The position numbers were made by a program, and so were the translations under genes. The notes under the pieces were generated by a model that was not told where the DNA came from, ran no database searches, and saw only the letters and a program-made list of their open reading frames with translations. Shown in pieces: positions 1,235-43,820 of a stretch of 64,000 nucleotides of DNA. The DNA comes from Rhizaria sp. SCN 62-66 (lineage: Eukaryota). Where the stretch lies: positions 1 through 64,000 of the forward strand of contig MEDY01000164.1 of the NCBI GenBank assembly GCA_001724265.1, given 5' to 3'. Numbering within the stretch: the stretch's first letter is position 1; every line of letters begins with the position of its first letter.

Positions 1235-4200
1235 ATGTACCAGGCGCGTCTCCCACATGCGCAGCTGCGTCTCATCGCCAGCACTGCCACCTCAACAGCG
1301 TCCGCCCTCTCACTGACACACCGCGCCAAGAATGCCACAACCACTACAACTACGACCGCCAATTAGCATTCGACTGCAACTGCGACTACGCTGCGCTCAA
1401 CTCCCCGCCGTTGTCTCTCCGTCTCTGCTTTATTACCACCGCTGGCGCCGCCGCCGCCGCTGGCGTTTCCCCCGCCGCACCTGCCCGCGTCTCTGTCCGC
1501 GCTCGCTGGCCCCACAGTCCTGACGCCGTCCCGGTTCCCCCTCGCCGTCGCGCTGGTAGCGCCGCAGCAGCCCGTCAACACGGGCGCCGTCGCGCGGCTT
1601 ATGTCCGCCTTCGGCCATGCCGAGCTGTACATCTCGCCCACCGACAGCGGCTTCGATGCGCTCTTGCCGGGGGAGATGCTCGCGGACTTTGACGGGGATG
1701 GCACTAAGCTGTCTCTCACGCTCGCCCCGCTCCACTTGCACAGCGAGGCCAGGGGAGGCGACAACATGGCTGCTGCTCCCGACACTGCGACTTACGCTGC
1801 GGCTGCTGCTGCTGCGGCTGCAGGCGTGCCGTTGAAGCTGGGTCAGTGGATCGAGCGGGGCTGGGTGACTCTGCTGCCTCATAGTAACGAGGCGGGGGAC
1901 GTGTGTGGCGACAGTGTCGACAACGACACCGACTCTGTCTTATCCGTGACTCCTTCACAGTTGCGCCCACAGCCACAGTTGCAGTCGCACTCGCCCTTAG
2001 ACTCTGCGGACTCCCTGATGCCGCCGCTGCTGCGCTTTCTCGACTTGCCCGCGTCTGCGCCCCTGTCCCCGCTGCTGCTGACGCTAGCGCGGCCAGCGCT
2101 GTTGCCGCAGCTGCTGCCGCCATCGCTGCTCTGCCCTGCTTGGCTTGCGGGCGCAGACAGGGCCTATGTAAGCAGGTACTTAGACGGCCACAGCAGCGGC
2201 GGTGTCAGTGGTGGCAGCGACGGCTTTGTGGGGGCCGTTTACGCCAGCGAGGCCACCGGCAGCGAATGCCGCCGCGGGTTCCGCGACGTCAGCGTTCTAA
2301 GGGGTAAGGTACTTTCACCCGAGCTCGCGCTGTCGAGCCGTCCGAGCGACGAAGCCCTTAGATCGTCCGAGGCGGCTAAGCACCTTGACGTCCAAACACC
2401 TATCGTCCCCTCTACCCCTTACATCAACAACAACACCACCCGCAGCGGCGGCAACAACGACGGCCATAACAGCAACGTTTTTAACCCTTTTTTCCCGCTC
2501 GCGTCGTGCTTCCTGCGCGACCGCAACGGCGTCGCCCTGGCCCCCCACAGCCCCCACGCGACGGCCTGGTCGCCGCACTGCGAGCTGGTCCTGCGCCTGC
2601 CCCTCGCCGCGCTCGCGCCAGAGGCCGCAGCCGTCGCAGTCGCCGCCGCCGCAGCAGCATCGCAGCCGCCGCCGCAGTCTCAGGCACAGCAGTCGAAGGC
2701 GCAGTCTCTGGGCTTCGTCGAGTTCGTGTGGGCGGCGGCGCGCGTGGGCGTGGCTGAGTTCCAAGGCGCGCACTTGACGCACTGGTCCCCGCCCTACGTC
2801 ACCGCTGCGCTGCACGGGAGTAGCAGCAGCAATAACAGCGGTGGCGAAAAGGGAGGCGATGGTGCTTCCTCATCAGGTTCCTGCTCGGGTGAGGAAAAGT
2901 CGGGATGTATCGCTGATAATGCAGAGTTGCAGGATGTCAACAATGAAAATAGTAATAACACGACTAACTCTAATACTTCCAACGGTTTCTTTTCTGAAAC
3001 TAGCGCTTCTGCTGGCGCTGCAGTCGACTCCCGTCCATGCTTGTCGCTGCCGTTCGCTCGCTCGCACCCGTGTGTTGCCGTCACCGCGCTGTCCTACTCG
3101 ACCGCCACCACCAACGGCTCCCGCGTGCTGCACCGCGCGCGGCTGTTTTCGCACCTGGAGGAGCTGCTCCCGTCGTTCGACGTCGTGATCGGCACTTCGG
3201 CGATGCTGCGGCCGTCGCCGGAACACCTCCGGGCCCCGGTCAGGCTGCCCTGGGAGTTTGACTGGCCCGCCATCTTCAACGCCAATACGACCTTAAACAA
3301 CAACAACAACAACAACGACAACAACGCTGTTGCTAATGAGAGCGCGACATACAACGCGGCTAGAGTTGGAGACGAGGACACGGCGAAACTTGAGTTCCAA
3401 GAGCGCATCAACACCGTAGTCGCATCCGTCCTCGCTTCCCGCTCAAACGCGAGCTCTAGCTCTGACTCGGGCTCTGACTCGGGCTCTGGCTCTGGCTCTG
3501 GCGCTGAGTCTAGCCCGCAGTCTCCGACGAGCGTCCCCCATCCCTTGCCTTCCGCCAGCCGCGCCCCGTCGGTGCTGCTGGTGCTGGGGCGCGAGTCTCA
3601 CGGCTTAACTTCGCGCGAGCTGTCCCTCTGCGACGCGATCGTCACCATCCCGGGCCCTGCGGCGTCGGGGGGCACGAACCACTCGCTTAACCTGGCCCAG
3701 GCCGCCGGCTGCGTGCTGTATGAGGCCGCGCGCGCGGAGTCTCAGTGGCGCAGTCTAAGCGCGAACAACAACAACAACAACAACAAAAACAATAACAACA
3801 ATCGCAACAAAAACAGCGGTCACGATCGTCACAACACGAGTGCCGGCTTTGTTGTAAGCCAAAGCCCTCATGCTGCTGCTACAGACGCGTCGAAGAGTGA
3901 TGCGAGGACGGCGACGGGCTGGTTTGATCCCCACGCACCTGCTGATCTAAGTACCCCCTTAGACGGCGCACTGGACCAGCCTCCTGCCTGGGCCCTTACT
4001 CCCCAGGGCTTTGACGCAACTCTTAATAGCAGCAGCAGCAGCAGTGAGAGTACCTCTAAAAAGTCTTTTTTTAAGCCCAAGACCCCGTCTCATGTTGCTG
4101 CGACTGATCCAGCTGGTGTAGACCCTGCGAGCGCCGGATTTGGCTACCCGGGCTCTGCGCTGCACTGCCCTGCGCCCGCCGCGCTGGCGGTGCCGCCGCA

Positions 4201-4939
4201 GGCCCGCGCGGCGCTGTACCGCGTCGCCCGCTCGCTGTTCGCGTTGCTGGACCCGGCGCTGCTGGTCAAGGGCGACCGGCCGCTGCGGCCGCTGCGGGGC
4301 GCCGACCCCGCGGCCGCCGACGCCGAGGACCTGCGCAGCGACCGGCTCTGCGGCCGCGGGTTTGGCACGGGTGCCGGTGGTGGTGGCAGTGTTTTGGCGG
4401 CGTCAATGGCGGCGTCCTTAGCGGCAGCGGTGGGGCCGGGGGGCGCGCTGCCGCGGCGCCACCACTTAGACCTCCGCCGCAGCGGCCTAAGTACCCCCTT
4501 AGACCAGAGCACCGCCTCTGACGCGAGCAGTGAGAGCACTAACTCCGACGACGGCGACAGTGCGGCTGCGTCTGTGTCTGTGTCGACGTCGTCGTACGCC
4601 GCCCCGCTGCCCGCCAGCCGCGGCCTGCCTTCGAACGCGCAGGGCCGTTCCCACGCCGAGGACCTGGCCGTGGCGGTGCGCAAAGTGCTGCTGTCGGTGC
4701 GGCTGTCCCGGGGCGAGTTTGGCGCCACCAAGCGGCTGTTCGAGTGGCTGGCCAAGCACGTGCGGCTCATGCGAGTTGCGGTTGCCGAGGCCGAGGCCGA
4801 GGCCGCCGCGGCTAAGGCCGAGGTTGCGGTGGCAAAGGCAGAGGCGGCTGCTGCGAAGGCCGAGACGGCTGTGGCGAAGAAGGAAGCTGATGCTGCGAAG
4901 GCTGAGCTGGCGCGGTTGAGCTAGACTGCGAGCAAGTAA
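1235..4939 (+). CDS. TrmJ/LasT-like SPOUT (SpoU) RNA 2'-O-methyltransferase with a putative mitochondrial presequence and very large low-complexity insertions; contains two in-frame TAG codons (1364-1366, 4922-4924)
   Basis: SPOUT motif 1 LAVALVAPQQPVNTGAVARLMSAFGHAELYI starts at 1541, upstream of the ORF-track ATG at 1601. Later motifs: FDVVIGTSA, motif 2 LVLGRESHGLTSRELSLCDAIVTIP, motif 3 SLNLAQAAGCVLYEA. The nearest in-frame upstream ATG is 1235. If TAG is sense, the CDS is 1235-4939 (TAA), 1234 aa. The family call is firm; the boundaries depend on the TAG interpretation. Confidence 0.8.
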
Positions 4940-7900
4940 ATGCTTGAACGACCACGTTTTGCTTTGTTTCATATTTTCTATGTCATGTTATTTAGAGCAC
5001 GCGAGATTCTTTATTTAGTTCAATCTAAACATATTTATTCATTCAAATACAGTGATGTAAAAGTGATCTTTAGCTTATTTTTCACCAAGTCGCAGAGTCT
5101 CCCACTTTTATCAACAACTCTTTTGCGTTCCGTTCGCCCAAACGTTCTGACATATAAGAATGATTTAATATAGCACAAGCTTGAGTAGATGCCCGGCAGA
5201 TAAGCTTATTGTGCATTGATGTTTACTGTTTATTCATAAATACTATCTACCCCGCCGGAATAAAACGTACTGGAGTAGGTAAGCTCATCCCCGCTGATCC
5301 ATCCGATCTCATCCGAGTAGTAAGTATCCTTTCATAAAATGGTTTCTAAAGTAAAATGATTTCAAGCATTTAAGCGTTGCGTTACTTGTCACGTCTGAGT
5401 AGTTATACGTGTGGTTTGAGTTCTGCGAAATAAACTTAGATATCTTCCTCAAACTCGCGTGCGAGCGCGTAATACGCGTCTAGGGCTCCAAGCCCGTCCT
5501 CGTCCTCCTCTGCACCACGGTCACCGGCGACAACATCAACATGGCCACTGCTCACAGTGCTGCCACGAGCATCAGTGTTGCCGTTGGCGCCGTCGTCAGT
5601 GGCTCCGCCGTGCCAGCGGGTGTTAGCAACCAGGCTGTCGCTGTTGTCGTTGCTGGAGTCGAAAGCGCGGGTCACTGCAGCAGCCTCCGCCACATCCTCA
5701 GCCTCCGGCTCCGGCTCCGGCTCGGCAAAGAGATACGAGTCTTCATACAAGTCGCTGTTATCTGCACCGTCGTCTGCGCGGGCAACAAGGGACTCCGTGT
5801 TGTTTCCACCCTCGTTATACGCAGCGTGAGCCGCATCAGCGTCAGCTTCAGCTTGATTCCTCGCAGCAGCAGCAGCAGCAGCAGCGGCGGCAGCAGCCTC
5901 AGCCTCAGCAGCATCAAGTTCAGCGTCGTTGTACTCATCAATGTAAGTACCTTGCTCCTCAGTGTAAGCATCCTGGTCTCCAGTGTAAGGTTGGTACGAC
6001 TCTTCGCCCATTGCAGCACCAGTATGATCAGTATCGCTGGGAGTGCTAACGCCGTCTTCAATGGAGGTATATGTACCCTCGTTCAAGCCATTAGAAGCTG
6101 TTGTCGCAGCAGCTGCATCAGTCTCAACCTCGGCAGCAACCTCAGCATCAGCGTTGTACATGTGATCACCAATAGCGTTGTTGTAATTCTGACCGTCCTT
6201 GGCGTAGCTAGCCTTCACGGTGGCCAACGGATCATAGGTACTGAGATCAAAGTCACGACTCGACACAACACCCTTGCTCTTGCGGCCACTATTGGAGGCA
6301 CCAGCGTTCAGACTGCTGTAGCCGCTCGAGCCCCCCATAACGCGCGCCTGCCTCGGCGTCGGCTTGATGTGGCTCGTCGGGTGGAGGTATATGACGCGGC
6401 CCGGCGACTGAGAGCCGCTGCGCCGCGCGACCGTGCCCGCCGCCGCCGCTACCGCGGACCGAGCTCGCGCCCGCGCCGCGCCGGTCAGCGCGCCCGCGCC
6501 AGAGCCCGCGCCCGCGGAAAGCACCGCCGCAGCCGAGCCGGTCAGGCCAGCGCCGCTGCTGCCCGCTGCGGAGCCCGCGGCGGAAGCGGCAGCGGCGGCG
6601 GCGGCGGCGTTGATGGCGGCGGTGAGAGAGCGCTGCCGAGACGGGTGCAGTGTGATGTTAGGGGAGATTGACGTGCGGGGGGAGACGATGAATGGCGACC
6701 GCAAGGGGTGAATGTGAGCGGCAGAGTGACCGTGAGCAGCAGCGTTGGCGTGGCCGTGAGCGCTGGTCTTGGTGCTAGTGCTGCTGAAGCTCATGGTGCC
6801 GTTGGCCTTGCTCATCGCTTGCGCCTGTCGCAAGGCCTGCGTGTGCGAGACAAGCGTACCCGTGACCATGGGTCCCTGCCCCAGGTGCCACCACGACCGG
6901 TCCGTCAGCACCGACTCTGGTCCGGTCAAAGCCACGCCAACGCCAGTCAAAGCTGCACTGGCACCGGTCAGAGCGGGCTGGTAGTCAAAGGCAGCAGTGG
7001 AGCGATTGTTGCTGTGAGCCACAGCAGCGTTGCTGGTTGAGTAGCTGTTGTGAACCAAGCTATCGTCGGTCATGGGCACGTAGTCTAAGTACTCAGCGTC
7101 TAAGCGGCCTGCGCCCGGATAAGTTCCCAGCTGCTGAGCAGCGGGAGCGTTCCGACTGGTGTTGAGCACGGCAGCAGCAGCTTCGGCCGCAATAATTGCC
7201 GCCGCCTCAGCCTCGGTCTCGGCCGCCTGCGCCCACTTGTGCGCTCGCGCAGCCTTTTCGGCAACACTTACATTCGCAGCGGGAGTGCTTACACTCGCAT
7301 TGGGAGTCAATGTGATACCGTTGTTTAAGTACTCAGCAAGATCCCACGTAGAAGCCGCCTTGCTCCCGCCACGCTGGGCCCTTAGATCCCTCTCCGCGGC
7401 CCTTAGCCCGCCGTCCCCGAGCTCACGGTCACCCAAACTAATGTTTGTCGGCTCACGGAACGCAGACTCAGGCCGCAGCCGCTGGCCCTCAGTGTAGCCC
7501 CAGTCGGATTTAAGGTTGGCCGCCTCATTGGCGAGCATATTTGCGATCTCGCGGTCCGGTGGCACAAGCGACAACGCCTCATTCACGGCAGCAGTAGCAG
7601 CGCCACCGGCGGTCGTTGTGTTGTACATGTATGCAGGCCGGCCTGTGGCCCTTAGACTGTCGACCCGGCGCACGGCGTCTGCGAGCGCGGCCTCAGAAGC
7701 GGCCGCGGCGGCGCGCGCGGCGGCCGCAGTTTCGGCGGCCGAGGAAGCAGAGGCAGCGGCCGCGGCGGCGCGGGCGGCGGCGGCAGCGGAGCGAGGGGAC
7801 AGAGGTACAGGAGCAGGGGTAGGAGCGACGGAAACAACAGCAGCAGTAGTAGCAGGAACAAAGACAGCATCATTGTTGTCCTCAGAGGTCTTAGCATCAG

Positions 7901-10900
7901 TCTTTGCCTTGTTGGCAGCAGCTGCTGCTGCTCCAGCAGTGCTAGCAGCAGAAGCAGCAGCAACAGCAGCAGCAGCCTTCGCCTCAGCCTGTGCAGCAGC
8001 CTTTGCATTGCTGCTGAAGCTTTGACCGTTATTGTTTGCAGCCAGAGCGTCAGTCCACTTCTGCCACACCACACGCATGGCCCTTTGATCGCGGATATTG
8101 ACAAACTTCCCGACCCTTACCCGCAGCTTACTCAGCGCCGCCCATGCCCTGAGTGCCGCGCGCGCGCGCCGTGCCTCTGACCGCGCGGCAAGCAGGCGTC
8201 CGCGCGCGCGCAGAGCAGCCGTCTGGCGCCAGGCCTGGAAGTTCAGCCGGGAGAGGGTTTGCCGGCGGTGCAGGAAGGCAACGGCAAGAGAGCGCGGGGA
8301 CGGCGGTTGATCGAACTCATCACCGTTGGCCGTGGAGTCGTCGCCGGTGCCGTACGCGTGGCGCTCACGGCCACCCGTAAAGTTCAGACTGTCGTCGTGG
8401 CTGTCGCTGCCCTGGGCGTTGGCGCTGTTTGGGTTAGGAGCGATGCCGGCGAGGTCATTGTAGAGCGTGGCTCTATGCGTCTCCGCGTGGGAGCCTGTGC
8501 GGGCCCCGACCGACACAACGTCGCCAACAGAGCCACTCTCGCCGTTCACAGGGCCGCCAGTGCTGCCATGAGCAGTGTTGGTGTTATTGTTAGCCAAAGC
8601 GGCGAGCGCTGTTTCAGCAAGTGTGGGCTCAAGCCAGAGAGCGCTGGGGACAACACCGAAAACACGCTGTTGCGGGGCACTTAGACTTGAGCTGCCACTA
8701 TTTGCGCCAGAACTGACAAGGCCGTGATAGTTGTTGTTGTTGTTGCCATTGGCATTCCAGTGCTCGATGAACGACACATCGCCAAGGACCGAAAAAAGAG
8801 GCCCGTCAGTCGGCCCCATAGCTGCACCATTATTAGCACTGCTAGCGGCAGCAGGGGGGTCGCCGCCGCTGTCCTTGTCCGCCAGCCAGCGTTCGCGCTC
8901 CCGCTGCTCGTACCACAGTGGCAGCGGCACGTGGATCAGCAAACCCTGGGAAATGGCGCGGTGAGCGGCCGCGGCGGCGGCGGAGGCCGCGGCGGGAGTC
9001 GCGGGCCGGCGCAATGCCAGCGTAAGCGCGACCGACGCGGCGTGGGCGCGCGCGATTGGGTCGATGTACACGTTCGTGCTACTAAGACTTTGACCATCCG
9101 CGTTCTCGTAGGCGTTGCTGGGGCCGCCAAGACCGATAGAGACAAGGGCGCTTACAAACGCACCGAACGACGTCTGAGGGTCCAGGGTAAGTGTCTGGGG
9201 GTTGCTGTAAGGGTATCCGTCCCACCGCAGCGCGAGCAAGTAAGGGTCCTTGTCCCAATCAAAGTTAGGCCGCACATACGTGCGACGACTCACGAAGCTG
9301 CTATGAACACCGCCGTTCGTGGTTGTGAGAGCGTTGTTGTTGCCGTTAGCGCTAGCGTTGCTGTTGTTGTTGTTGTTGTTGTTGTAGCGTGTGACACGCG
9401 CAGCGGTAGTGGCGGCCACCCAGTGCTTCAGCGCGGCGGCAGCGACACTGCGCGCTTGCGCCTGCAACGCGAGCCGCGTCGACAGCGCCTTCTGGCGCCG
9501 CAGGAGGGAGTAGGCGCGCAGGCGGGCGAAGAGGGACTGTGCGCGGGCGCGCTCACGGTCACCGCGGTGCGCGGCCGCCAAGGAGCTGTGGTGGAGATGT
9601 AAACAAAAAGAAGTAAAATTAAGATGAGAAATGACGCGAGCAAAGAATACAATGCACAAAAATCAATTTTAACGCATAAAAACTCGATTATGTTTGATTT
9701 GTTCAATACTTGTTATATTACGTACGCAAAATGCTTGCAGAGGGCTGCGTTGGCCTTCAGTGCAGCCACCGCCCTGCGCATGATCCAGTCCGCAGCCACC
9801 ATGGCAGCCGTCTCACGGGCGCCGCGGCGGGCGCGCGCGGCGTCGGCGGCGGCGGCCAGCGCGCGGAGCCCGCGGGCAAGGCCATTGCGGCGCGCTGCGG
9901 CCGCAGGCGCGGCGACGGCGAGGCTGCGCGGCAGAGCTATCCTTGAAAGAGTTCTACCTCCGCTGGAGCGGGCACTGTTCACAGTGCTTGTGGTGTTCGC
10001 GCCAGCAGTAGTGCTGTCGAAGCCGGCGTAGTGGAGCCAGCGTGCAAGCGCGCGCTTTGTCGCCACCATCTTAAACGCCTTGTCAGCGGTGGCGTTGACC
10101 TTGGCCTGAGCCTTGAGGCCGGCCCAAGAGCGCCAGGCGCCGAAGGAGGAGACTAGCTCGACCTTGCGGCGCAGGGCCAGGCGCCGGCTAGATATGATAT
10201 GTACGCACCAAGAATGACGTATTTGTAAATGATTTTAAAATTTTGAGTGTAAAACAATTTGTGTTAGTTAAAAACAATAGAAATTTTGTAAAATAAAAAA
10301 ATTCAAAGTATGTAGGCTCGTTTTAAGGAATCAACACGTTCGTAACAGGTTAAACCACAACTAGTTAGCAAGTTTTTATCTTTTCATAATTAAAGAACGT
10401 ACCTCGTGACGTCGCGCCACCTTCTGAGCGCCTCCGCAGCAAGCGCGCCGTTCCTGCGCGCGGCCACCTCTTCCCCGGCCTCCGCGAGCGTCTGCACTCG
10501 CGCGCGCCACAACTTCACCCCGCGAGCCAAAGCGACCGCGCGGCGGAAGCAGCGCGCCTTGGCCTCTGCCTCGCCCGCCGCGCGCGCCGCGACGAAGGCC
10601 GTGGCCCAGGCAGTCAGCGCTGCGGCGGCGAGGCGGCGCCGCTGCAGCGCGGCGACGGCGGCAGCGGGGGCGGCCAGCCGCGCCAAGGGGGCGGCGGCCG
10701 CAGCGGCCCAGTGATTCAGCGCGGCCCGGGGCAGCACGCGGGCGCGGGCGCGGGCCAGCGCAGTGCACAGACGGCGGGCGGCGGCGCGGCGGCGGCGGGC
10801 AGCCAGCCAGAGAGCAAGGTAGCGGCGCAAGAGAGAACGCGGGAGCACGTGGGAGGAAGTTAGGCCGCCGAGGAGAAAAGTGCTCTCATTAGTCGTCATG

Positions 10901-13900: not shown

Positions 13901-14364
13901 CGCGATTGCGACCGCGACCGAGACCGTGAGCGTGAGCGGCTGGTATCGCCCTTGCTGTTAGCGTCGCCGGCGGGGCGGCCGTTGATGGTGAAGTAGCGCG
14001 AACGTTCGCGCACTTTGCCCGGGGATAGCGAAGACGCCAACACCGGCGGGGGCCGGCCGGAGAAGCTGCTGTTGTTGACGCGCATTACGACGCTCACGTC
14101 GTGGCTCTTCTCAAGAGCGGCACCGCTCGTATTGACGCCGTTGTTGGCGCTGTGCACGTTCTCATCGTTGTCAACGCCGTTATTCTTGTTGTTGTTGTTG
14201 TTGTTGTTGTCGTTGTGAGTGGAGACAATGCCTGATCCGTACGGGGCAGCGACGGCTCCGTTTTCGTCGCTATCAAGACTGGTATTGTCGTGATTGTGGC
14301 TGTAGATCGCACTGGTGTGCAGCTGAGCGCGGGACACGCTGAGGTCTGTAAGGGGGTACTTACA
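3946..14364. repeat. Dispersed 17-18 bp quasi-palindrome (T)STAAG-TACCC(C)-CTTAS(A), six copies
   Basis: + strand copies at 3946-3963 and 4486-4503; - strand copies at 12617-12634, 12929-12946, 13445-13461 and 14347-14364. Many half-sites elsewhere. Confidence 0.8.
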
Positions 14365-14468
14365 TTTGGCGACGCTGCCAGGACTGCGGCTGCGATTATA
14401 GCTCTTGTTGTTATTGTTAGAGCCGTTACCAGTCATACTGTTGGAGTGATTTCCGTGAATGTCAGCTT

Positions 14469-14502
<34 letters not shown>

Positions 14503-16563
14503 GTTGTAGTGGCTGTTGTCAAAGCGGCGGTGTCCATGGGCGGTACCGTTGCTGTTGTCATTGCGGTGGCGCTCGCGACCGCGCCGACTGCTGCTGACAC
14601 TCGCATTGCCACTGTTGTTGTTGTTGTTGCCGTCGTGATTGTTGTCGTTGTCACTGCTACTGTAGCTATCGTTGCTGTCACTTAAGTAATACTGCTCGTT
14701 GAAGTGACCGCGAGCAGAGTGACCGTGAGCAGAGTGACCGTGAGCGTCGTCGTCATCCGTCACAGTAGCCCGCGGCAGCTTACTCTGACTAGGCCTGTGA
14801 CTTATCAGACTGTGACCAAGGCCTGCCTCAGCCGCCGCCGCCGCCGCCGCCGCAGTAGCAGCAGCAGCGGCGCTAGCATTGTAACGCGACTGCGGGCGTG
14901 AATGTGACTGTTCGTGCGAGTTGTTGCTGTGACGACTGTGCATGTTGGGAGTCGACAGCAAGTTGTGACCGTGAGCAGCATGTGTCCCGGCAAGGTGGCC
15001 GTGAGGAGCAGGACTACGCTGCACCAGTAGCCCAATATCGGCCAAAACCCCCGCCACTGACCGCGACAATTCATTTTTGTTGCCATCGTGATCACTAGCC
15101 CCTTCCAGCTCCCTGTCTAAGCGACGAGGCGTCTTATTGGGAACATCAGTCATATTATTGCTATTTGTGTTATTGGCAGTCGCAGTCACGTTGAGCAAGG
15201 CACCAGCAGCATCCTCCTCGTCGTCGCTGTTGTTAGTGTAGTGACCGTGAGCAGCAGAGTGACTGTGACCGTGGCCGTGGCCAGGACTGACCATGTAAGT
15301 ACTGCCTTCTAAGGGGGTTGCAAGCCCGTTATGCCCGAAAACACCGCTCTGTTGCTGCGAATGCATCTGCGACTGTTGTTGCAGCCGCAACTGTTGTTGT
15401 TGCTGCAACAACTGCTGTTGCTGCAGCTGCAGTTGCAACTGCATCTGTTGCTGCTGCTGTTGTTGCTGTTGCGCCAACAGCAGCGCACGCGTATGCTCTT
15501 GCTCCTGTTGCTGCAGCAAACTTACATTAGCCGCGTCCAGATCACGTTCACGCCTGCGGGCAGCCGTCACCGCCGCCGCCGCCATCGCCGCCGCCGCAGC
15601 TGCCTTGGCCTGTGACTTCGCCTCAGCAGCGGCGGCGGCGGTGGCAGCGGCGCCATTGTGGACCCCTGATAGCCTTTTGCTGTTGAGGTTGCGAGAGGAG
15701 GGGCCGTTCGTCGCACTCGATTTCGCACTTACTGCCTTGGTCGCAGCAGCTGACGCAGCAGCAGCAGTGGCGGCGGCGGCGGCAGCGGCGGCCTCGGCAG
15801 CCTCAGCGGCTAATAGCGCAGAGTGGGAGCGGCTTAGCTTCTCGCTCTCTGCGGCGCGGCGCGCGCTGAGAAAGCCGAGGCTTGTCATAGCAGCGGCAGT
15901 GACACTGTTATTGCTCGCGCTTGTGTTTAGATTGGTGTTACCATTGCTGTCAAATTGATTTAAAAATGACGAAGTTGACGGCGATGCAAACGGACGGCTA
16001 GTCAGCGGCGGCGGCGGCGGCGGCAGAGCGGGGCCAGCATAGTAGCCGTTGCCATTGCCAAACTGTTGCTGCTGCAGCTGCTGTTGCTGTTGATAGTGGC
16101 CTCCAAGACTCAGCGCAGTCGCACCCAGCGCGTTGGCGTTGTTGTACATGAGCATGTTGTTGCTGGCACTGGTGTTCGCGGGCCCGCTGCTGTTCACAGA
16201 GCCAACCGACATGCTGAGGCTCGTGTTGTGGCCGGCAGGCGCAAGGCCGGGGTAAAGCGCGTTCAGCAGCGAGCCGTGTCGCAGAGCCTCGGACGCAATC
16301 TCCGAGCGGCTTGAATTCAAGTACGCGTCGACCGCGCGCCCCACACTGGAGCCAGCCGCAGCCGCTGAAGCAGCCGTGGAGGCAGAGGCGGCAGGGGCGG
16401 CAGAGGCTGAGGGGCGGCGGGTGCCGGAGACGGAGGGCCGGCGCACTGCGGCGCTGCCGGATCGTGTGGGTTTGTGAGGCGGGGCAACCGGCTTGCTAGT
16501 GACCGTCGTGAATTTGGGCACGGGGGGCTTTTCGCGGCCCAGGAGGTAGCCGTGGGAGGCCAT
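5436..16563 (-). CDS. Giant (~3590 aa) low-complexity protein with Sfi1-like (centrin-binding) Trp repeats
   Basis: Exons 16563-10403, 10187-9726 and 9585-5436. Introns 10402-10188 and 9725-9586 are both GTACGT...AG, phase 2. Total 10773 nt, in frame, ending TAA. About 15 helical repeats of type L/AxxxF/LxxW[RK], e.g. LRAAFAVWQR, LAAEALRRWRD, LVSSFGAWRS, SRLNFQAWRQ, MRVVWQKWT. Confidence 0.7.
14468..14507 (-). repeat. (AAC)n trinucleotide microsatellite encoding poly-Asn; representative of many exonic AAC, GCN and CAR tracts
   Basis: (GTT)n run on the + strand; similar tracts at ~3297-3325, 3764-3800, 9362-9385 and 14187-14215, and poly-Gln at ~15370-15470. Confidence 0.85.
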
Positions 16564-17022
16564 TGAGAGCGTAGAAAGCGGGCCAGGGGATCAGGGCGGA
16601 ACCGATGGGATATGCGCACTGGAAAGACTATGTAGGGGAATATTAAAACAGTAAGATGATACAATATGCCAGGTTAATATTTGTTTGTGCTGCTATTTTC
16701 GAATTACACGGACTTTAACGCCTCATGATCTTGCTTGAGATTTTCTGTTCGTTGGGACTAAAATAGAGCCGTTGGCTTGCCACGACTGGCATTACTGTAG
16801 GTCGTGAGCCCATTTCCTGCTTATACTGAGTACATCTCTTGGTTGTTGTCATATTCTCGTTTAAATTGGAGATATATGATTTATTGTTACGCAAATATTA
16901 TTAATTTAGCCCACGAAGTATACAATGACCTTTTTCACTGACATTTACCATGAGCACAAGCAAGATGTTCAAGTTGTCTCAATTCACACACAGTACTCAA
17001 CAGAGCTCAGTCTTTCACTCAT

Positions 17023-20000
17023 TCAAGCGTTACCGCTGTTCTTGCCCGTCGACGTCGCCGCTGCCGTCGCAGCAGTAGCACCAGCGGCGGCGGCGCCCTC
17101 GCCGGCCTTCTTGACCCTGCGCCAGAGCGTCATGGGGACAAAGCGGTTGCGTTTCTGCCACAACCCGTGCACGTAAAACGCCCGATGGAGCGACCCGGAG
17201 CGGTCGATGTCGATGAGGGGCGCCGAGGTCACGGCCCACCACTCGCCGCTCTTGTCCAGCCCGGTCTGCACGGCGCTGGCGTGCGAGCCCGAGCCGGCCG
17301 CCGCGGGGGACGCCGCGCGGCTCGCCCAGGCGTCCTTAGGGTGGGTACGGTCGGGCCCAAGGTCCGTGTCGACGACGAAGTCGCACTCGGAGAGCGGGAT
17401 GAAGCGGTCCTCCTCGCGGCGGTTCAGCTCGTTCATGTGCTTCGCGGCGGGCGCGGTCGCGCCACGGACCGAGGAAGCCGTGATGTTGGAGCCGAAGTGC
17501 TGCGGGAGCAGGCCGCCGAAGTCGCAGTCGATGAAATATAAGTCCAGCCGGGGGCGAACGAGACGGGAGTAGCCAGCGGCGATCTTCGAATACCCATCGG
17601 CAGCAGCAGCAGAATCCCCCGCCTTGGTACTATGGGGCTGGTTCGTGAAGATGCGACCGACAGCGCTGCCGAGAGCAAACACATTGTCCTCACCAAAATC
17701 ACCACCATTAGCACTGGAGCTAGAGCTAGAGCGAGAGCTGGAGCTAGCCTTGTTATTGCTGTTACTCTCATAGTGGGTGGTAATGATGGTGGGCAGGCCG
17801 TCGCGGCTGTCGCGCTCTGACTGGGCCTTGGCGACTTCGGCCTCAGTCACTGGGGCCCACGCGGCCTCGGGCAGGTAGAAGTACGAAGGGAAACGGTACC
17901 ACTCTTTGCCGACGCAGACGCGGGCAACAGAGGACTGCTCTGCAAGGAGCTTCGCGTCCGCAAGCGAGAGGCCGGCGACGGAGACGAGGGGCTCGGGGGT
18001 CTTGGCCTCCGCCATAGTGACGAGGCGGGGCATCGTCTCGCGCGCGTAGCCCAGCGGGGGGCGGCCGGTCAGGTTGAAGTAGTTATTCGCCGCAGTGATG
18101 GCCCCCATCAGGGTCGTGTCAGTCTTCAGAGCGCCGGCGACGGCCAGCGTCGGGTCACTACTGTCAACAACGCCGGAGCTCGCGACGCCGAGGCGAGCAC
18201 CGCTAGCGCTGGCAGCATGGGAAGCCTTGTCACCGTGACTGTTGTTGTTGCGATCGTCATTGCCGCTGCTGTTGCTGCTGTTGGCGCTGGAGTTGGCGTT
18301 CTGGTTGCTGTCGGTAGCGGCAGTGCTCTGCACGGTGTGGAAGGCGGCAAACGCGACGAGGCCCGGTGTCGTGGCAGAGGACACCTGTGCATACAGGGTG
18401 AAGAACGTCACGGCTGGCGCGGAAAAGTTGTACAGCACAGCGAAGGCGCGCGAGACTGAGAGCGTGCAGTGCAGGATGAACAGAGTAACCGCGACGATCC
18501 AACTCGCGAGACGCCAGGGCGCGCGGCGGCGACGGCGAAGCGTCGCAAGCGAGCCGCGAACAGACGCAATCGGGCCGCACACAGCGTTAGCCGCGGAGGC
18601 GCTCGCAGAGCTGGCGTTTGTGGAGGCGGTGGCAGAGCTGGAGCTGGAGCTGGTAGGACTGGCGGCAGTGCCAGCGCTAAAGTTGTTGCTACCGCTGCCG
18701 TTGTTGTTATTGTTGTTGCTGAGCCCCGCGTTGTTGGCGCTAGCGGTGTCGCGGGCGCGGAAGACGATGATCTTGAAGTAGAGCATAATCCGCTCCCACG
18801 CGGGCCGCGCCACAAAGGCCGCGCGCGCGGCGCTGAGACTTGCACTCACACCACTGCTGTTGCCGCCGCCGCTGTTGTGCGACAGAGACGATGAGCGAGA
18901 CCGGCCGTTGGCATTGGAAGAAACAGAACTTGCATTCGCGGCACTGTCGCTAGCGCTGTTATTCGCGCTCTTAGGGTCACAGTCGCTGCCACTAGCAGTC
19001 TTGGCGCTACTGTTGTTGCTGCTGTTGTTGTCGGAGCCAGAGGTGGGCTCGTTCAACGCGGACTGGACGAGGGCCGTGTCCAACACACTGGGGTTGAAGC
19101 CGACGGCGACGGAGGCCGCGTCAGCCGCAACCTGGACACACGCCAGCAGGATCTCGAGGCCAAACGCAGCAGCCAAGCACAGCAGAGGGTAGATAACGTA
19201 GAGAAAGCGCTCTTCTTTGTGAGGCTGGGGGAACATCACGAGTACCCACAGGTACATTGGCGTGAGCAGCCACGCCTGCGCAATCAATGAACACGACCAA
19301 TCGGCTAAGTAGGACGCCGCGCGCGCCGAGAAGGTACTTAGACCGGAGCGCGGGGTACTTACACCAGGAGCGGGGAAGCCCAGCAGCGCGCGGGTGTAAG
19401 TGGGCCAGCCCCTGAGAGCGCCGAAGACGACCATGCCGGCGCCTGAGATGAGCGCCAACGCGAAATGCGCGACTGCGAGACCAAACGCAACACCGAAGTT
19501 GAGAAAAAGATTGACGAAGTAGTAGGTCCATGGCTCCGTGCCATAAAGCTGCTGACCAGCGCCGTCGTCATTGTCGTCGCCAGCGAAATTGCTGTTGTAC
19601 ATCGCAATGTTCCAGACCGCGATTACCGGCGCGCGGTTGTAGTAGTGCCAATCGACAAGCACTGACAAACCCAGGATGCCGGCGGCGGACGCGGCGGCGG
19701 CGGCGGCGAGGTATAGCAGAGACCACTGACGCGCGCGCGCAGGCTCGAAGGAGACATACGGCGACGTGAGGGCCAGGGGGGCCGCGGCCGAGGCCGAAAG
19801 GCCGATAGGGTTGACGAAGAAGCGCAAAAGCCAGCCCAGGGAGAGCGGGGGCAGCGTCAAAGCAGCGCGAACAGCCAGTACACTGCTTGAATTGACACTC
19901 GCGGCGGCCGCAGCGGCGTTGCTTGCGATGATTTCGGCCTGGGAAATGCTGCTGCGACGGCTGTTAGCGACTGAGCTGGCGGCGGAGCTGTTGGCTGAGC

Positions 20001-21432
20001 TGTTGGCTGAGCTGCTATTGCTGCTGTTGCCGGAGTAAGGCCCGTGCCGCTGCCGCAGCGTGCTCATGTTGAGACTGCTCTCGTAGCTCAACACACTTGC
20101 GCTCCCATTGACAGAGCCCACAGTAACAACGCTGTTGTTGTCGCCAGCGCTGGCATTGGGGCTCGCGAAAGCGCCGGACTTTGCGTGGCTGGTTCTCGGC
20201 GTGCTGAGCCCGCTGTTGTTCGCGCTATTGCCCGCGCTCGCATTTGCACTGCCATTCGCACTCGGATTCGCGCTACCGTCGGCGCTGGCGATGCCGTTAG
20301 CACCAGAGCTGCTCTGAGAGCCTGTGGCGGCGTCTGTGACAGCGGGGGCCGGGGGCAAGACGCCAGCGGCAATCGCGGCGGCAGCGCCCTGAGGCAGCGA
20401 GGCCCAGTAAGGCAGTGGCGCGTCAGACCAGTCCCAGGGACGGTAGGTTTTGAGGGCCTGCCAACCCATGGGCAGCACCATGAAGACGATGAATGGCCAG
20501 CCGAGCAGCCCGGCGAGCGCGACCCAGAAGATCATGAGGGCGAAGTGGCGACGCACGTACGCGGGGGCCGCGCGCGGGTCGCTGGCGTTGACCCAGGCCG
20601 CCCAGGCCAGCGTGAGCGTGTTCATAGTGAAGGACTGGGGAAGAATGGCGTGCCCGGCGTGGTCGAAACCGCTCGAGAAGAGCAGGAATACGAACAGGAG
20701 ATTAGATACGCGGCGGCCGAAGCGGCGCGCGATGGCTGCAATAAAGATAGCTTGGGCCAGAGCGCAGTACATGGCGCTGATGACCTTAATCACGAAGAGA
20801 ACGCCGATCTTGCCGAACTCCTGCTCGACACCGAGGTACCTGGGATTGAAGAGAAGGAAACCCAACAATATAGATACATGAGACATTTAGATTTTTAAGT
20901 GAAAGCAGGAAGGACGGTAAAACATACACATATGCGCACTACAACTCAATGATGTCGCAACATAAAATAATTACGACCGATTTAGGCAGAGAGGATGTGG
21001 AAACATGACGTACTTCGCGATGTATCCGATGATGGCATAGGGCCAGAGAAAGAGATAGGAGCGCAGAGAGTATTCGCTGCTGTACTCCCACGTCTGGAGT
21101 CCGCGACCGTACATAAGCAGGTGCAGCGGCTCGACGTAGTTAAACGTCTCATCGCAGTCCATGACCGGGGAGAAGAATGCGGAGAGAGCACGGAAGCAGA
21201 ATAGCGCGATCAAGTGCACCACCAGAGGCCAGGCGGGCTCCAGGGGGGCAGGGGAGGCCGTCAAACGCGACGCACAGCTGCCAAGCATACTACTGCCGGA
21301 GCCAGAGGGGCCGGAGCCAGCGCCGCCGTTGCCGGTGCCGTTGGCGGCGTTGGAGACGTTGCCGTTGATGGCGGTGTCGGGCGCCGAGGGCCGGCGGGAC
21401 CCACCCGCTCCAGAGAGGCGCCGGGCCGACAT
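17023..21432 (-). CDS. ALG9: Dol-P-Man alpha-1,2-mannosyltransferase ALG9 (GT22), ~1411 aa with long insertions
   Basis: Exons 21432-21014 and 20839-17023, intron GTACGT...CCCAG, TGA stop. Motifs DCDETFNYxEPLH, GLQTWEYS, LRSY, QPHKEERFLYVIYP, VCVGKEWYRFPS, GLLPxxF and MNxLNxxExDR, plus multiple TM segments. Confidence 0.93.
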
Positions 21433-22223
21433 TAGACTGGGGGCACAGCGACGGCTGCAACGGCGGACGCGCTAAGGCACAGATGCAGCGTGGGGGGTTG
21501 TCGCACGCGCGCACACAGACTCGTTTGCAGTCACTCGTTTGCAGGCACAGCTGCGAGATACGAGCTGACGAGCAAGCGGGGGCACAGGATGGAGGCGAGG
21601 GCTCTTGAGAACAGGAACCTACGCAACCCGCGCACAAGGGGTGTCTGCAGGTGTTCGATTAGAGTCAGAGAAGAAGAGGAAGTAAGGGAGAGTAAGCGTT
21701 TGAGTTGAAGGGAAAGGAAGGGGCAACTTACGGTCAAGCGAGGTGATAGCAAAGGCAGGATATGACGACCAGTACTGAGAGTTAAAAACGCCTAATAACA
21801 AATCTACACAGAAAATAATTCAACATATACCTGTACATCGTATTCACCGCAAACGACAGATGCTGCACTGCAATACAGACTCCATTCGAAAGGCCTAATA
21901 AGTCACATGCTTGTCGTCGAGGTTATCGCGTCGGTCGACGGTTGCATCCCATACAAACTGGAGTTCAGTTCTAAAAGCAGGCATATCTCGCCGTAATCAG
22001 CCATGGTCATGATAAAAATGCGACAAGGAGATCAAAATAAGCATTATGTTTTATTTTTGTGTGTTTTGATATAATATTCAACTAGTATAATGCGCCTATC
22101 GCGCGTTAGGTGTTTTGTTACTGACAGGCAACCGTTCCCTTCGCGCATCACTCATGATCGCGGCTTCGTTTTCACTCTAAAACAGAGGAGTTAGCTCGCA
22201 ATGGCAACGTCGCGCCGCCATCT

Positions 22224-23150
22224 TTACGCGTCGCGCTTAGCCCACATCACCTTGCTGGCGATCTCGGCGTCCTTCTGCAACATTTTCGCGAACAGTGGCA
22301 GCAGCCCCGCCGCGCCCAGCCCCGCGGCCGCCTGACTGTGCTTCTCCCCGTTGCCCTATTTGCGCGCCGCGGCGTCGCACTGCGCCTGCGCCGCGCCAAC
22401 GACCTTGGACAGCAGCTTCGTCAGGTCGTTCTGCGCACGCGTCACGACCGCGGGCGCGGCTGCGGCGGCGTCGGCGTCAGAGTCGGCGGCTGCATTAGCC
22501 GAAGAGCTAGTGGCAGCGGCAGTGCCGCGCATGCGGTTCCACTCAGCGCACTCCTTGGCGGCGACGTCCTTGTCGTTGCCGCCCGTGTAGGCGACGCTGG
22601 GCACCGTCACGAGTGGGTACATCGGGTGCAGCGAGGTGGGGGGGATGGTGTTGCTCTGGCGGACGTGGGTGGTGAAGTTGGGCGCTGGCTTGCTGGCCTC
22701 GGGGAGCGCCTTGAGCGCCACAGCAATAAGCGCGTGGGCCGCGGTAATAACCTGCTGGGCCTGCGCGAACTGCACCTCCTGGTCCTGGCCCAGGGTGCGG
22801 AACCAGTGCGCGCGGTCCGCCTCAGGCACGTCCTTGAGCCAGGGCGCCTGGGCCAGCAGGGACGACTGCGAGACGCCGCCGTTGTGACTGGAACCGGGCT
22901 TGCTAGAGTGCGCGGTGGAGCCTTCAATAATGAGCGCAACAGTGGGGCTGCCTGCGGTGATGCCCGCGGCGGCGAGCGTGGCGCTGTCGTCGTTGACAGC
23001 CTTGTTCTTGACGAGAAGACGCTGCTTGGAGTAGGGCGCAAGCTCGGCGGTGGCGATGCGGGCACGCAGCTCGCCAATCGTGGCCGAGGCGGGCAGAGTG
23101 AAGGTGCGGGAGTCGCCACCATTGACCTTGACGGAAACCTCGAGGGACAT
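22224..23150 (-). CDS. Ubiquitin-like-domain protein, probable compact BAG6/Scythe-like protein; in-frame TAG at 22358-22356
   Basis: N-terminal Ubl (VSVKVNGGDSRTFTLPASATIGELRARIA...QRLLVKNKAVNDDSATLAAAGIT). The ORF track ends at TAG 22356, but the frame continues for 43 codons (39/43 ending G/C) to TAA at 22226-22224. PWLKDVP..W...QD and the C-terminal helix resemble BAG6 C-terminal elements. Confidence 0.7.
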
Positions 23151-23718
23151 TAGCCGCGGAGTCTAGTCCGGGGGCCAGGGAGCAGGGGATCGGGGGAGGA
23201 AGGGAGCGAACGGGTGAGATTCGGCAGGCGAGACGCAGCAAGGGATATCTGAAGATATTCGCATTTTAAGAACATATTATATTCAAGATATCATACCAAA
23301 CCATATAAATTCTATATACGAAGTTACATGAAATTTGACGCAGATATGACCGCGCTAGATATGATTTAAGGCAGTCTTCAGATTGAGAGCGTCAGCAAAG
23401 AGAAGACGCTCGGCGACTTTTTAGGAACCAGTCTCTCCGTCCGTCCGACCTACGCCCCCGACGATGAAACGGCTCGATCGAGTGGCCAACTTTGAGAAGC
23501 CGCAGAGACTTCATATATCCGTTGTTGTGCATTTAGACATTAGAATCAAACCTATGCGGCAATAGTGTATTGTTTTTTCTATTACTGTGTCTTCAAGTGC
23601 TCTCACTGTCCCGCTACATATTATCCCGACAATCGTCTCTTCTGTCTGTGTTCCACCACTCCACTCCACCCGGTTTCTTCCTGTCATTCCTCAACGCAAC
23701 CAGAACAGTCCTCCACTG

Positions 23719-28184: not shown

Positions 28185-28862
28185 TTACTGCTTGTCGTTG
28201 TTAAGGATGGCAAGGATGTCGTCCTCGCGGTAGAGGAAGTAGGCCTTGGAGTCCAGCTTGACCTCGACGCCGCCGTACTCAGGAAGGAGGACGTCGTGGC
28301 CAACCTTGACCAGGGGCTCGATGGTCTTGCCCTCCTGGTTGCGGAGGCCGGGGCCGACGGCGACGACGGTGGCCTGAGACGCAGAGAGCGTGGTGTAATG
28401 TGTACAATGGAAGAAAGAGAGATAAGGCGGTGCTAATGCATGCGGTTTCATGCTAAGAGAAACAGTTACAGGATGGTAGCTAACGGGCAACACAAGGGCG
28501 AACACGCGTGTTGTACCGGAGCTTATTACGGGGACGTACGGTGTTGGACTTGTCGGCGTTGGGGAGGAGGATGCCGGCAGCGCTCTTGGCGGGAGCGAGG
28601 GCCTTGTCGACGAGGACGCGGTTCAGGGTGGGGAGGAACTTGCGGAGAGACTAAACGACACACAAAAGTGCAGCGGAGAGCGGTTGGGTGGTATGGTGAG
28701 ACAACGAAGCGGGACAGATGCGAGTGCGGGGTGAGGGGAGCGGACCGACTCAGTGCTGAGACCAGAAAGTGGGCATCACGTTTTGGAATACAGCACGCGC
28801 AGTTGATCGTCGAGAGGATTTGTTTAGATATATGCAATTATACGAACGTAGGTACGTACCAT
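28185..28862 (-). CDS. HSP10: 10-kDa chaperonin (HSP10/Cpn10, GroES family), 100 aa
   Basis: Exons 28862-28860 (ATG only), 28650-28540 and 28373-28185 (TAA). Protein MSLRKFLPTLNRVLVDK...AGILLP...ATVVAVGPG...VKVGHDVLLPEYGGVEVKLDSKAYFLYREDDILAIL. Confidence 0.95.
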
Positions 28863-42861: not shown

Positions 42862-43820
42862 GGGAGCGACTGCAAGAGTGCGGGGGGAAGCGGCACAAGT
42901 GCGAGGGCAATGGAGAGCGTGCGCCGAGTTGAGGCGGTCCGGCGGCGGGTGGCAGGCTGACAACGCGAGTGCGTTCGGTCGGTGAGGGGGAGAGTTAGGG
43001 AATGCAAGGGCAAGTCAGGAAGGGGGAAGATCGCGTCCTTATAGGGTGAGAATTGATGAGAAGATATAATAATTAAGAGAAATTATGATAATCAAAATGT
43101 GGGATCAATAGCTATGGATTCACCGATGTAGACCCGCTGGGAGGGTTGATGTTCGAGGCAGAGAAGTGGGCTTGAGAGAGGGAGGAAAAGAGTCGCACTA
43201 GCTCGGCGAGTCCGCTGTTTGAAATGAATTCTAAGGAGGGAAACCACCCCATCAAGGTCCAAGTAGCTGTAAAATTCAAAGCCAATATTCCATGACGAAT
43301 CTTCCTGTGCGCCACCGTTTCTCCTCTGCCCAACACGACCAATTCGACCAACCCAGTTCAAATTGACCGTTGAGCCGACAGGGCCGAAAAAAACAAAGGT
43401 CGACAGCGGTGAAATTTTCGGTTACCGAGTCGTCCATTTCGAAAAAGCTAATTGAGTTCGATCAAGTTAGGTCTGATACGAGACACACGCGCATCCAAGT
43501 GGCATCGCAATTATCAGTATGATTATCCCATCGAGTGATTTGTTTTGTTTTGCATTTGGTTTCGCTATTTGAGTCCGCTTTCTGGCTCTGTTAATGCCTT
43601 TTAGTTCCACCGGTTACTCAACCCCCTAGAGCTCGATCTAGCGCTTGCTGACAAGGTCTTTGCGGCCTCTCCCTTCACTCCTAAAGGCATGTATGCTCAC
43701 TTTTCGAATTATTTCATGCTTTTCTTTACTCTATATTTTGTTCTCATAGACTCCAGCTTCGGTCCTACCTCGCGTTTGTGACCGGCCGGAATCCACCCCA
43801 CCCCCAAGGCCTTCCCGCTC
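42862..43820. promoter_or_regulatory. Probable bidirectional promoter region between CEP104 (-) and the dynein beta heavy chain (+)
   Basis: Head-to-head starts 959 bp apart, lower GC, no credible ORF. Inferred from gene geometry only. Confidence 0.5.

Follow-up and report, generated by a model that had tools for sequence, protein, structure and literature searches.

Genetic codes in which UAG alone is reassigned to glutamine, with UAA and UGA kept as stops (NCBI table 15), are described for Iotanema spirale (PMC5304391) and for Hartmannula sinica and Trochilia petrani (PMC11687900). These lineages use UAG widely, with several codons per gene, and suppressor tRNAs were found in them (PMC5304391; PMC11687900). 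In-frame stops followed by conserved coding sequence also occur in programmed readthrough (the UAG-CAR-YYA type, or C-terminal extension isoforms), and amber alleles occur as natural polymorphisms in microbial eukaryotes.

The locus compared here with these systems is a 64-kb stretch of DNA (the window) from an uncultured eukaryote of wastewater. The original prediction held that this organism decodes UAG as an amino acid, and cited three in-frame TAGs (1364, 4922 and 22358). All three were recovered at these coordinates and in the frames assigned to them, and no further in-frame TAG was found in the window gene models; TAGs at 44295 (plus strand) and 42621 (minus strand), seemingly in frame in a list of stop-to-stop open reading frames (ORFs), lie inside introns. 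As in the described UAG-to-Gln codes, a TAG here aligns with Gln, TAA is a true terminator, and no gene strictly needs TAG as its stop. Unlike in those lineages, there are at most 3 TAGs in about 17,000 codons, and the sole well-supported site is polymorphic. Among the points in favour of the prediction is that TAG 22358 interrupts conserved coding sequence, whereas the polymorphism of that site and the scarcity of TAG speak against UAG as a sense codon. The likeliest reading, which we consider probable, is that the stop codons are standard and that each of the three in-frame TAGs has an ordinary cause of its own; a change of the genetic code, although possible, is not the favoured reading. 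As this one 64-kb window illustrates, a strain-specific amber allele, a TAG terminator near a TAA and a doubtful start codon can mimic a code change.

A polymorphic TAG in a ubiquitin-like gene

The TAG at 22358 lies in a gene encoding a ubiquitin-like protein (gene E), with the following features:

22224..23150, minus strand: ubiquitin-like gene E, intronless, with an N-terminal ubiquitin-like domain and its ATG at 23150
22356..22358, minus strand: in-frame TAG, codon 265 of gene E; CAG in L002, X4 and X7, TAG in X3 and L001
22227..22355, minus strand: 43-codon tail past the TAG, with a GC3 of 0.91, conserved in the orthologue
22224..22226, minus strand: TAA, the ancestral terminator of gene E; the frame of the orthologue ends there to within a few codons

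Gene E comprises 308 codons when the TAG is read through and 264 when it is not. Stop triplets on both strands of the window (1,784 TGA, 872 TAA and 806 TAG) were scanned using codon-usage log-odds trained on 12,985 window codons, and each flank was required to hold 25 or more open codons and to exceed 0.2 bits per codon. Among these 3,462 triplets, only 22358 had coding-like codons on both sides (16.0 and 14.7 bits for the 40 codons on each side), and no TAA or TGA did. The tail itself scored +16.0 in frame, versus -57.6 and -22.7 out of frame. The sole orthologue, from the relative L002, has CAG (Gln) at the position of the TAG and retains the tail motifs GNGE, GLLPLFAK and KDA.IASKVMWA. Compared with this orthologue, the protein is most strongly conserved in its tail (approximately 70% identity, 28/40 by hand count on the alignment, versus 60% for the whole protein).

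An exhaustive HMMER search with gene E returned 107 matches, and those outside its own cluster were all mainly on the ubiquitin-like domain, leaving the tail without distant relatives for comparison. A metagenome scan with the gene E alignment yielded just two contigs, one of 2,175 nt from the same strain and one of 1,432 nt from the relative. In the AlphaFold model (mean pLDDT 48), the ubiquitin-like domain alone is confident. The protein record P0003, which ends at TAG 22358, was seen on 7 contigs; a 108-kb contig is reported for it.

Strains were compared over a 20 kb stretch that includes 4922 and 22358, with 1364 lying outside it, at depths of about 5-8 per contig. The original prediction had named reads with CAG at the TAG sites as a possible refutation, and CAG was indeed present at 22358 in contigs from two other runs, X4 (depth 6.7; approximately 0.4% diverged from the window) and X7 (depth 7.76), both with G for A on the plus strand. 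In contrast, L001 and X3, the latter from another study, retain TAG. Since the orthologue, X4 and X7 all have CAG, the C>T allele at TAG 22358 is derived and belongs to one strain; it is a single-base change from an ancestral sense codon that segregates among strains. The allele is not an assembly error. The RNA-library contigs X6 and X7 belong to the other strain: the 931-nt X7 contig, with CAG, is collinear across 22358, whereas X6 carries the variants of X4 but does not span the site. The X6 contigs cover short parts and give no measure of expression level. The many joints and loose ends in the contig comparison coincide with low-complexity repeats and were set aside.

The strains differed at 56 positions, with a transition:transversion ratio of 38:15. 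The 40 differences listed comprised 12 synonymous and 14 missense changes, the TAG/CAG change and 13 changes outside coding models. Judged from these sequence differences, the strains are under no more than moderate selection. The three indel differences in coding sequence were all multiples of three, hence loss-of-function variants are not rampant.

TAG 22358 resembles a natural amber polymorphism: one C>T transition separates it from CAG, it is derived relative to the outgroup and other strains, and it is located at 86% of the length of a lineage-specific protein, within the final 14%. Nonsense variants that are tolerated are typically found near such late protein positions. Two points are unlike such polymorphisms, namely that conservation is strongest in the tail that is lost, and that a neighbouring gene has a second in-frame TAG near its start, which is not readily put down to chance. 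We propose that TAG 22358 is a young CAG>TAG allele of the window's strain, and that it would shorten the protein from 308 to 264 residues, with loss of a conserved C-terminal helix. As the change would be young, the downstream frame is still intact. The mRNA would probably escape nonsense-mediated decay because gene E has no intron, and the allele may persist because the loss is tolerated or sheltered.

Two TAGs bounding a SpoU methyltransferase frame

The other two TAGs bound the ORF of a SpoU-type methyltransferase (gene A):

1235..1237, plus strand: first ATG in the leader of the SpoU gene, sharing the frame of the SpoU ORF and with A at -3
1364..1366, plus strand: in-frame TAG, 43 codons past ATG 1235 and 59 codons ahead of the SpoU domain, in the context TAG CAT
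1367..4921, plus strand: SpoU-type methyltransferase ORF, 1,185 codons, bounded by TAGs 1364 and 4922
1541..1639, plus strand: SpoU motif-1 region (Pfam PF00588 profile positions 2-34)
4922..4924, plus strand: TAG, most simply the SpoU gene terminator, unchanged in the X3 and X4 contigs
4937..4939, plus strand: in-frame TAA, four codons after TAG 4922, where AT-rich 3' sequence begins

Only four codons (T A S K) separate TAG 4922 from the TAA, so this TAG is uninformative on the code and is indistinguishable from a normal terminator. It would most simply be the plain terminator of the methyltransferase gene, and TAA 4937, in AT-rich 3' sequence, would be there by chance or as a back-up. The two flanks of TAG 1364 score 1.6 and -11.9 and are not coding-like by this measure. 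The expectation that the frame stays coding-like past each TAG is borne out at 22358, but not at 4922 or, by codon usage, at 1364. The suggestion that glutamine is the decoded residue is favoured by the CAG of the orthologue at 22358, whereas no orthologue was found for the gene with the other two TAGs: a protein search with the SpoU gene returned its own record (P0007) alone, a search with a 46-residue region returned nothing, and viral contigs searched with the SpoU protein gave no match.

TAG 1364 is nonetheless hard to place outside coding sequence. The motif-1 region begins 20 codons upstream of ATG 1601, the first in-frame ATG past the TAG, and the motif-1 residues N, G and R are all upstream of this sole downstream AUG. 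A large low-complexity insertion separates motif 1 from the C-terminal half of the ORF. No ATG occurs in the 501 nt preceding ATG 1235, and three follow it; among other genes with a placeable start, 7/9 begin after 71 to 391 nt without an ATG, while in genes I and J an ATG precedes the start by only 55 and 25 nt, respectively. Within the leader, in-frame codon log-odds are about -0.3 per codon; over the 43 codons past ATG 1235 they turn to +3.8. Another frame scores better in 1336-1530, which is due to GCC repeats, and that frame has no ATG.

Under the standard code, TAG 1364 would end a 43-codon frame that begins at the first AUG of the SpoU mRNA. The weakest step in our proposal is what follows: either this TAG may be a second amber allele, disabling the N-terminus of a probably dispensable enzyme, or the enzyme may start at a non-AUG codon between 1367 and 1541.

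Terminators and the scarcity of TAG

Complete 3' ends were available for 13 genes, 11 of which end in TAA (genes B, C, Cpn10, dynein, J and K) or TGA (genes D, F, G, I and CEP104); gene A has its TAG four codons before a TAA, and gene E ended ancestrally in TAA. The original prediction had counted ten other terminators, and was correct on six TAA, while the TGA ends number five rather than four and the total eleven. It had also stated that no gene convincingly ends in TAG. It is true that no gene needs a TAG stop, yet TAG 4922 passes as a normal terminator, and one TAG-ending gene in 13 (gene A counted) is not significantly few and is compatible with either code. That UAA remains a stop is well founded. 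The dynein alignment reaches residue 398/400 and its TAA lies 1-12 residues from the ends of solved outer-arm heavy chains, and the TAA of Cpn10 is only a few residues away from where solved HSP10 chains end. TGA is less certain than TAA as a true stop because the TGA ends fall in unconserved tails. TAA is the commonest terminator despite a GC3 of 0.79.

The rarity of TAG was likewise confirmed, including its absence from the 4,714 dynein codons (exons 43821-44210, 44370-48929 and 49086-58277). The 14,172 confident codons include 456 CAG, 472 CTG and 110 TTG, and a neutral C/T first-position synonym of CAG would give roughly 100 TAG. TAG thus falls short of a neutral Gln synonym by a factor of about 30-100. 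Given at most 3 TAG to 456 CAG, versus 110 TTG to 472 CTG, TAG behaves like a selected-against variant rather than an established synonym. In-frame UAG was not seen at many conserved Gln positions; one of the three TAGs could be aligned to an orthologue, and it falls on Gln. The exclusive presence of TAG among the three in-frame stops is to be expected under the standard code, where TAG accounts for approximately 70% of one-step nonsense mutations by a hand weighting at GC3 0.79 and the 38:15 ratio, in which the counts of several codons were estimates. The same code makes two internal amber codons among 13 genes improbable, at 0.5% or less by a rough estimate.

Alternative readings of the in-frame TAGs

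A table 15-like code, with UAG as Gln and UAA and UGA as stops, would have to be very young or weakly decoded with TAG almost unused, and we consider it unlikely. Two of the TAGs would then be sense codons, and the third a former terminator past which translation continues to TAA 4937. Such a code would explain why TAG 22358 aligns with Gln in the orthologue and CAG in other strains, with a conserved and strongly coding tail behind it (CAG<>TAG would be a synonymous polymorphism), and why motif 1 of the SpoU gene has no AUG of its own, as ATG 1235 would be the expected start. It also accords with TAA ending dynein and Cpn10 close to the ends of solved homologues, with the dispensability of TAG as a stop, with the precedents of Iotanema (PMC5304391), Hartmannula and Trochilia (PMC11687900), and with splicing, as no canonical intron can remove either TAG 1364 or TAG 22358. 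Against it, orthologue support comes from one site, TAG use falls 30-100 times under the neutral level where known UAG-reassigned lineages have several in-frame UAGs per gene (PMC5304391), and such a code has a low prior probability outside ciliates. Moreover, the change would have to date from about the time of the strain split, or selection against TAG would have to be almost as strong as that against a stop, in which case the polymorphism no longer favours the Gln reading. There is a small chance that the window captures the very start of a UAG-to-glutamine reassignment in a GC-rich, flagellated wastewater-reactor eukaryote, with UAA and UGA as stops, TAG almost purged, and the first TAG sense codons arising as CAG>TAG polymorphisms served by a new or weak amber decoder. 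If true, this would be a rare UAG-only reassignment outside ciliates, at an early and nearly codon-free stage, with direct bearing on the mechanism of stop-codon capture. Neither tRNA genes nor Rfam matches were found within the 64-kb window (0 and 0).

Less probable still is that UAG is a leaky stop, through a near-cognate tRNA-Gln(CUG), a weakened eRF1 or a recent amber suppressor tRNA, so that in-frame TAGs are partly read through and tolerated while TAG terminators carry back-up stops. Two internal TAGs tolerated within 13 genes, the in-frame TAA four codons past TAG 4922 and the preference for TAA at a high GC3 are consistent with this, as is the C next to TAG 1364. C is the leakiest +4 base in eukaryotes. 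Conserved coding sequence after an in-frame stop and this C at +4 also recall programmed readthrough. In contrast, TAG 22358 is followed by G (UAG-G), which is a good termination context and not readthrough-promoting, and unlike at programmed readthrough sites, the stop is not conserved, with the orthologue encoding Gln outright and CAG in other strains. The absence of tRNA genes from the window is a further point against leakiness. Sequencing or assembly errors, or removal of the TAGs by splicing or editing, are very improbable. Depth is low, and each TAG ends in AG, in principle a possible 3' splice site, but the consensus sequences of the window, L001 and the X3 contig, the last from another study, all carry TAG 22358, P0003 recurs on its 7 contigs, and the X7 contig shows no break at the site. 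A frame-compatible GTA[CT]G donor marks 11 window introns (GC 0.29-0.47), whereas none lies near TAG 1364 or 22358 (none on the plus strand in 700-1700) and both flanks of 22358 are GC-rich coding sequence. Splicing out of these two TAGs, named in the prediction as a possible refutation, is thus improbable. Four candidate introns, identified by eye and frame-checked, were rejected because their donors (GTCTCC, GTCTCA, GTCCGC and GTCGTT) do not fit GTA[CT]G: 1248-1517 or 1269-1517 from ATG 1235, 1300-1517 from ATG 1257, and a 48-nt in-frame GT..TAG intron around 22358. The junctions B2-B and D2-D, which are outside the 11, had no frame-compatible GT-AG pair in the ranges scanned.

Genome contigs searched with the dynein query and with a 38-nt exact pattern from the window gave no match. 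ESM Atlas matches of the dynein motor fell into dynein clusters of mixed taxa.

Stop triplets and gene content of the window

The original prediction held that UAG is read as an amino acid in this organism while UAA and UGA still act as stops, and the three TAGs on which it drew (1364, 4922 and 22358) are all present. Codon log-odds were trained on the long open reading frames of the window and then applied to the 40 codons before and the 40 after each stop triplet. Among the 3,462 stop triplets scored (1,784 TGA, 872 TAA and 806 TAG; both strands), TAG 22358 alone passed a threshold of 25 or more open codons and over 0.2 bits per codon in each flank. A coding-like frame was predicted to continue past each TAG, which holds at 22358 (flanks of 16.0 and 14.7 bits, 40 codons each) and, by this measure, fails at 1364 (1.6 and -11.9 bits, 40 codons each); past 4922, the frame does reach a later TAA, but one just four codons away. 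The observation is partly confirmed, with one site striking.

Genes recognised in the window were:

1367-4921, + strand: gene A, SpoU-type methyltransferase
Minus strand: genes B and C, two long low-complexity genes
Minus strand: gene D, Alg9-like glycosyltransferase
22224-23150, - strand: gene E, ubiquitin-like-domain protein
Gene F, protein with a CH domain of sperm-flagellar type
Cpn10 gene
Gene G, LRR/IQ protein
CEP104 gene
43821-58280, + strand: axonemal outer-arm dynein beta heavy chain, 4,714 codons with only two introns

With this gene set, the organism is flagellated. The best solved relatives of the dynein are the beta chains of Tetrahymena, human (DNAH17/DNAH9) and Chlamydomonas. 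Public metagenomes dated 2015 to 2025, from bioreactors, wastewater and activated sludge, contain the stretch; at least half of its words occur in four of them, of which one may be its source. The window is thus a contig of an uncultured eukaryote. Its G+C content is 50-69% per 2 kb, with long GC-rich exons (GC3 0.79, 12,985 training codons) separated by AT-rich spacers and introns. Scans of the 64-kb window found no tRNA and no Rfam match.

Donor sites vary unusually little across the window. In 11 introns, GTA[CT]G (for the most part GTACGT) is a frame-compatible donor; the positions noted are:

26799, 28538 (-), 36982, 39635 (-), 40874 (-): GTA[CT]G-donor introns
42637 (-), 44211, 48930, 59344 (-), 59877 (-): further GTA[CT]G-donor introns

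These 11 introns are 156-458 nt long and far more AT-rich than the exons (GC 0.29-0.47), and each has a pyrimidine-rich 3' half terminating in YAG. For one intron of gene G, GTTCGG is an alternative, equally frame-compatible donor. A twelfth intron, at about 360 (-), was found by eye, and at two further junctions the junction script returned no frame-compatible pair in the ranges supplied. Two more TAGs that were in frame in the stop-to-stop list of open reading frames, 44295 (dynein) and 42621 (CEP104), were rejected as lying inside GTA[CT]G-donor introns. In Cpn10 (28374-28538, -), the frame is opened by an acceptor near 28650 and not by an ATG, the start codon being on a separate, very short putative upstream exon. 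The CEP104 start is preceded by a long C/T-rich leader with 391 ATG-free nucleotides (42862-43252, -).

TAG 22358 in gene E and its variation between strains

Gene E is intronless and starts at ATG 23150. The 43 codons past TAG 22358 have a GC3 of 0.91 and score +16.0 in frame versus -57.6 and -22.7 out of frame; past TAA 22226, log-odds are negative in every frame. A search of 5.8 billion proteins returned two entries for gene E. One (P0003; 264 aa, on 7 contigs) is the window's own call truncated at the TAG, and the other (P0004; 312 aa, 60% identity) is its single orthologue. Their alignment spans the TAG, with ...AARK[TAG]GNGEKHSQAAAGLGAAGLLPLFAKMLQKDAEIASKVMWAK in the window and ...QARRQGNGERNAAAAAGAVEAGLLPLFAKALAKDAAIASKVMWAQ in P0004. 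The contig encoding P0004 (L002) has CAG at this site and TAA as its terminator, and its tail differs from that of the window at many synonymous positions. The region past the TAG is therefore genuine coding sequence under selection, and CAG was the ancestral codon.

We aligned contigs of four public sequencing runs to window positions 3400-23399. Those of run X3 (another study, 2017) are near-identical to the window and retain TAG 22358, as does a 2,175-nt contig from a JGI collection (L001). Runs X4 and X7, both dated 2025, have G instead of A at + strand position 22358, that is, CAG; X4 is about 0.4% diverged from the window (53 substitutions). TAG 22358 is therefore a derived, strain-specific C>T change and, as the assembled consensus of two or more studies, it is real. 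Among the 56 differences, 40 were itemised: 12 synonymous, 14 missense, one TAG/CAG and 13 outside coding models. Selection between strains is no more than moderate. The coding indels that separate the strains, three in all, each have a length divisible by three:

10574, 13908, 14727: in-frame indels of 3, 6 and 3 bases in low-complexity gene C

The indel at 14727 lies within a repeat of very high summed depth that is probably common to other organisms. In the gene E tail, position 22334 (-) reads CAG in the window and AAG (Q>K) in X4 and X7; this second difference lies in a variable linker, where the relative has Ala.

TAGs flanking gene A and terminator usage

Several features favour a place for TAG 1364 within the coding sequence of gene A. 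Pfam SpoU profile positions 2-34 match nucleotides 1541-1639, and the match is lost when translation begins at ATG 1601, an ATG within motif 1 but downstream of its conserved N, G and R. No in-frame ATG occurs between TAG 1364 and 1541; the sole upstream one, at 1235, has A at -3. The 501 nt ahead of ATG 1235 are ATG-free (the leader, 735-1234, is long and C/T-rich), and three ATGs lie between 1235 and 1601. Seven of the nine other genes with a placeable start have an ATG-free stretch of 71 to 391 nt before it; in genes I and J, an ATG occurs just 55 and 25 nt ahead of the start. In-frame log-odds, about -0.3 per codon in the leader, reach +3.8 across the 43 codons past 1235. However, the 58 codons past TAG 1364 are not coding-like (-9.2 bits; GC3 of the first 24, 0.42), which weakens the case for a TAG inside coding sequence. 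A canonical intron removing TAG 1364 is excluded, since no GTA[CT]G donor occurs on the + strand from 700 to 1700. Protein searches returned no orthologue of gene A. TAG 1364 may be read as sense, may be another amber allele besides 22358, or may lie ahead of a non-AUG start of gene A. Within gene A (1541-3700, +), a low-complexity insertion of about 640 residues splits the methyltransferase between motif 1 (Pfam 2-34) and the C-terminal half (92-142), and contains poly-Asn runs despite the 60% GC genome.

The end of gene A reads ...ELARLS TAG T A S K TAA, with the TAA at 4937 followed by AT-rich sequence. TAG 4922 is unchanged in the covering contigs of X3 and X4, and no feature distinguishes it from a normal TAG stop followed by a TAA that is there by chance or as a back-up. 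Ten other terminators had been counted (six TAA, four TGA), but our recount gave 11, with TAA in six genes and TGA in five. More genes end in TAA than in any other stop (6-7 of 13) despite 79% G+C at third codon positions, and AT-rich sequence starts within a few bases of most stops in the window. The claim that UAA still terminates stands: the dynein alignment extends to residue 398 of the last 400, its TAA lies 1-12 residues from the ends of solved outer-arm heavy chains, and Cpn10 ends within a few residues of solved HSP10 chains, coincidences that mark TAA as a true stop. With 4922 as the terminator of gene A, TAG ends one of 13 genes. TAG terminator usage is typically 20-25%, and such a count would then have a chance of about 0.15-0.2. 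This tally does not tell the two codes apart: with UAG reassigned, 4922 would be what was once a terminator, and the count is the same either way.

Standard code or decoded UAG

This window does not decide whether the code has changed, and the ordinary reading is the more probable. We consider it likely that the standard code applies, with ordinary causes for all three TAGs. Against this stand the conservation of the tail that would be lost past TAG 22358, and the expectation that two internal ambers in 13 genes would arise with a chance of roughly 0.5% or less, a rough estimate from the between-strain missense count and rates in yeast isolates. Ordinary nonsense mutation would in any case be expected to make every in-frame stop a TAG, as about 70% of one-step nonsense mutations lead to TAG given codon usage and the observed 38:15 transition:transversion ratio (estimated by hand, with the counts of several codons guessed). 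Leaky UAG readthrough or a strain suppressor seems quite improbable; the UAG-G context at 22358 is not one that promotes readthrough.

Sense decoding of UAG is likewise unlikely in our assessment, which combined a likelihood ratio of perhaps 10-90 with the low prior of a UAG-only code that is sparsely used and found outside the ciliates. The proposed Gln identity agrees with the CAG of the orthologue at 22358; X4 and X7 also carry CAG there. With the comparable C/T first-position synonyms TTG/CTG at 110/472, about 100 TAG would be expected beside 456 CAG under an established Gln assignment, far above the three at most that were seen. Hence, a reassignment would have to be about as young as the strain split, for which the prior is very small, or TAG would have to be selected against almost like a stop, which would make a CAG>TAG polymorphism no more probable than a nonsense allele of the usual kind. 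Published cases of UAG-only reassignment are Iotanema, with Gln, and a rhizarian, with Leu (PMC5304391), as well as phyllopharyngean ciliates (among them Hartmannula and Trochilia with Gln, UAA being the preferred stop) (PMC11687900). These organisms use UAG widely, unlike the window with its three in-frame TAGs at most. Both UAR codons are reported as reassigned in Amoeboaphelidium (PMC5304391), which does not fit the TAA stops of the window, and Amoebophrya is a case in which about half of transcripts can lack the reassigned stops (PMC6394959).
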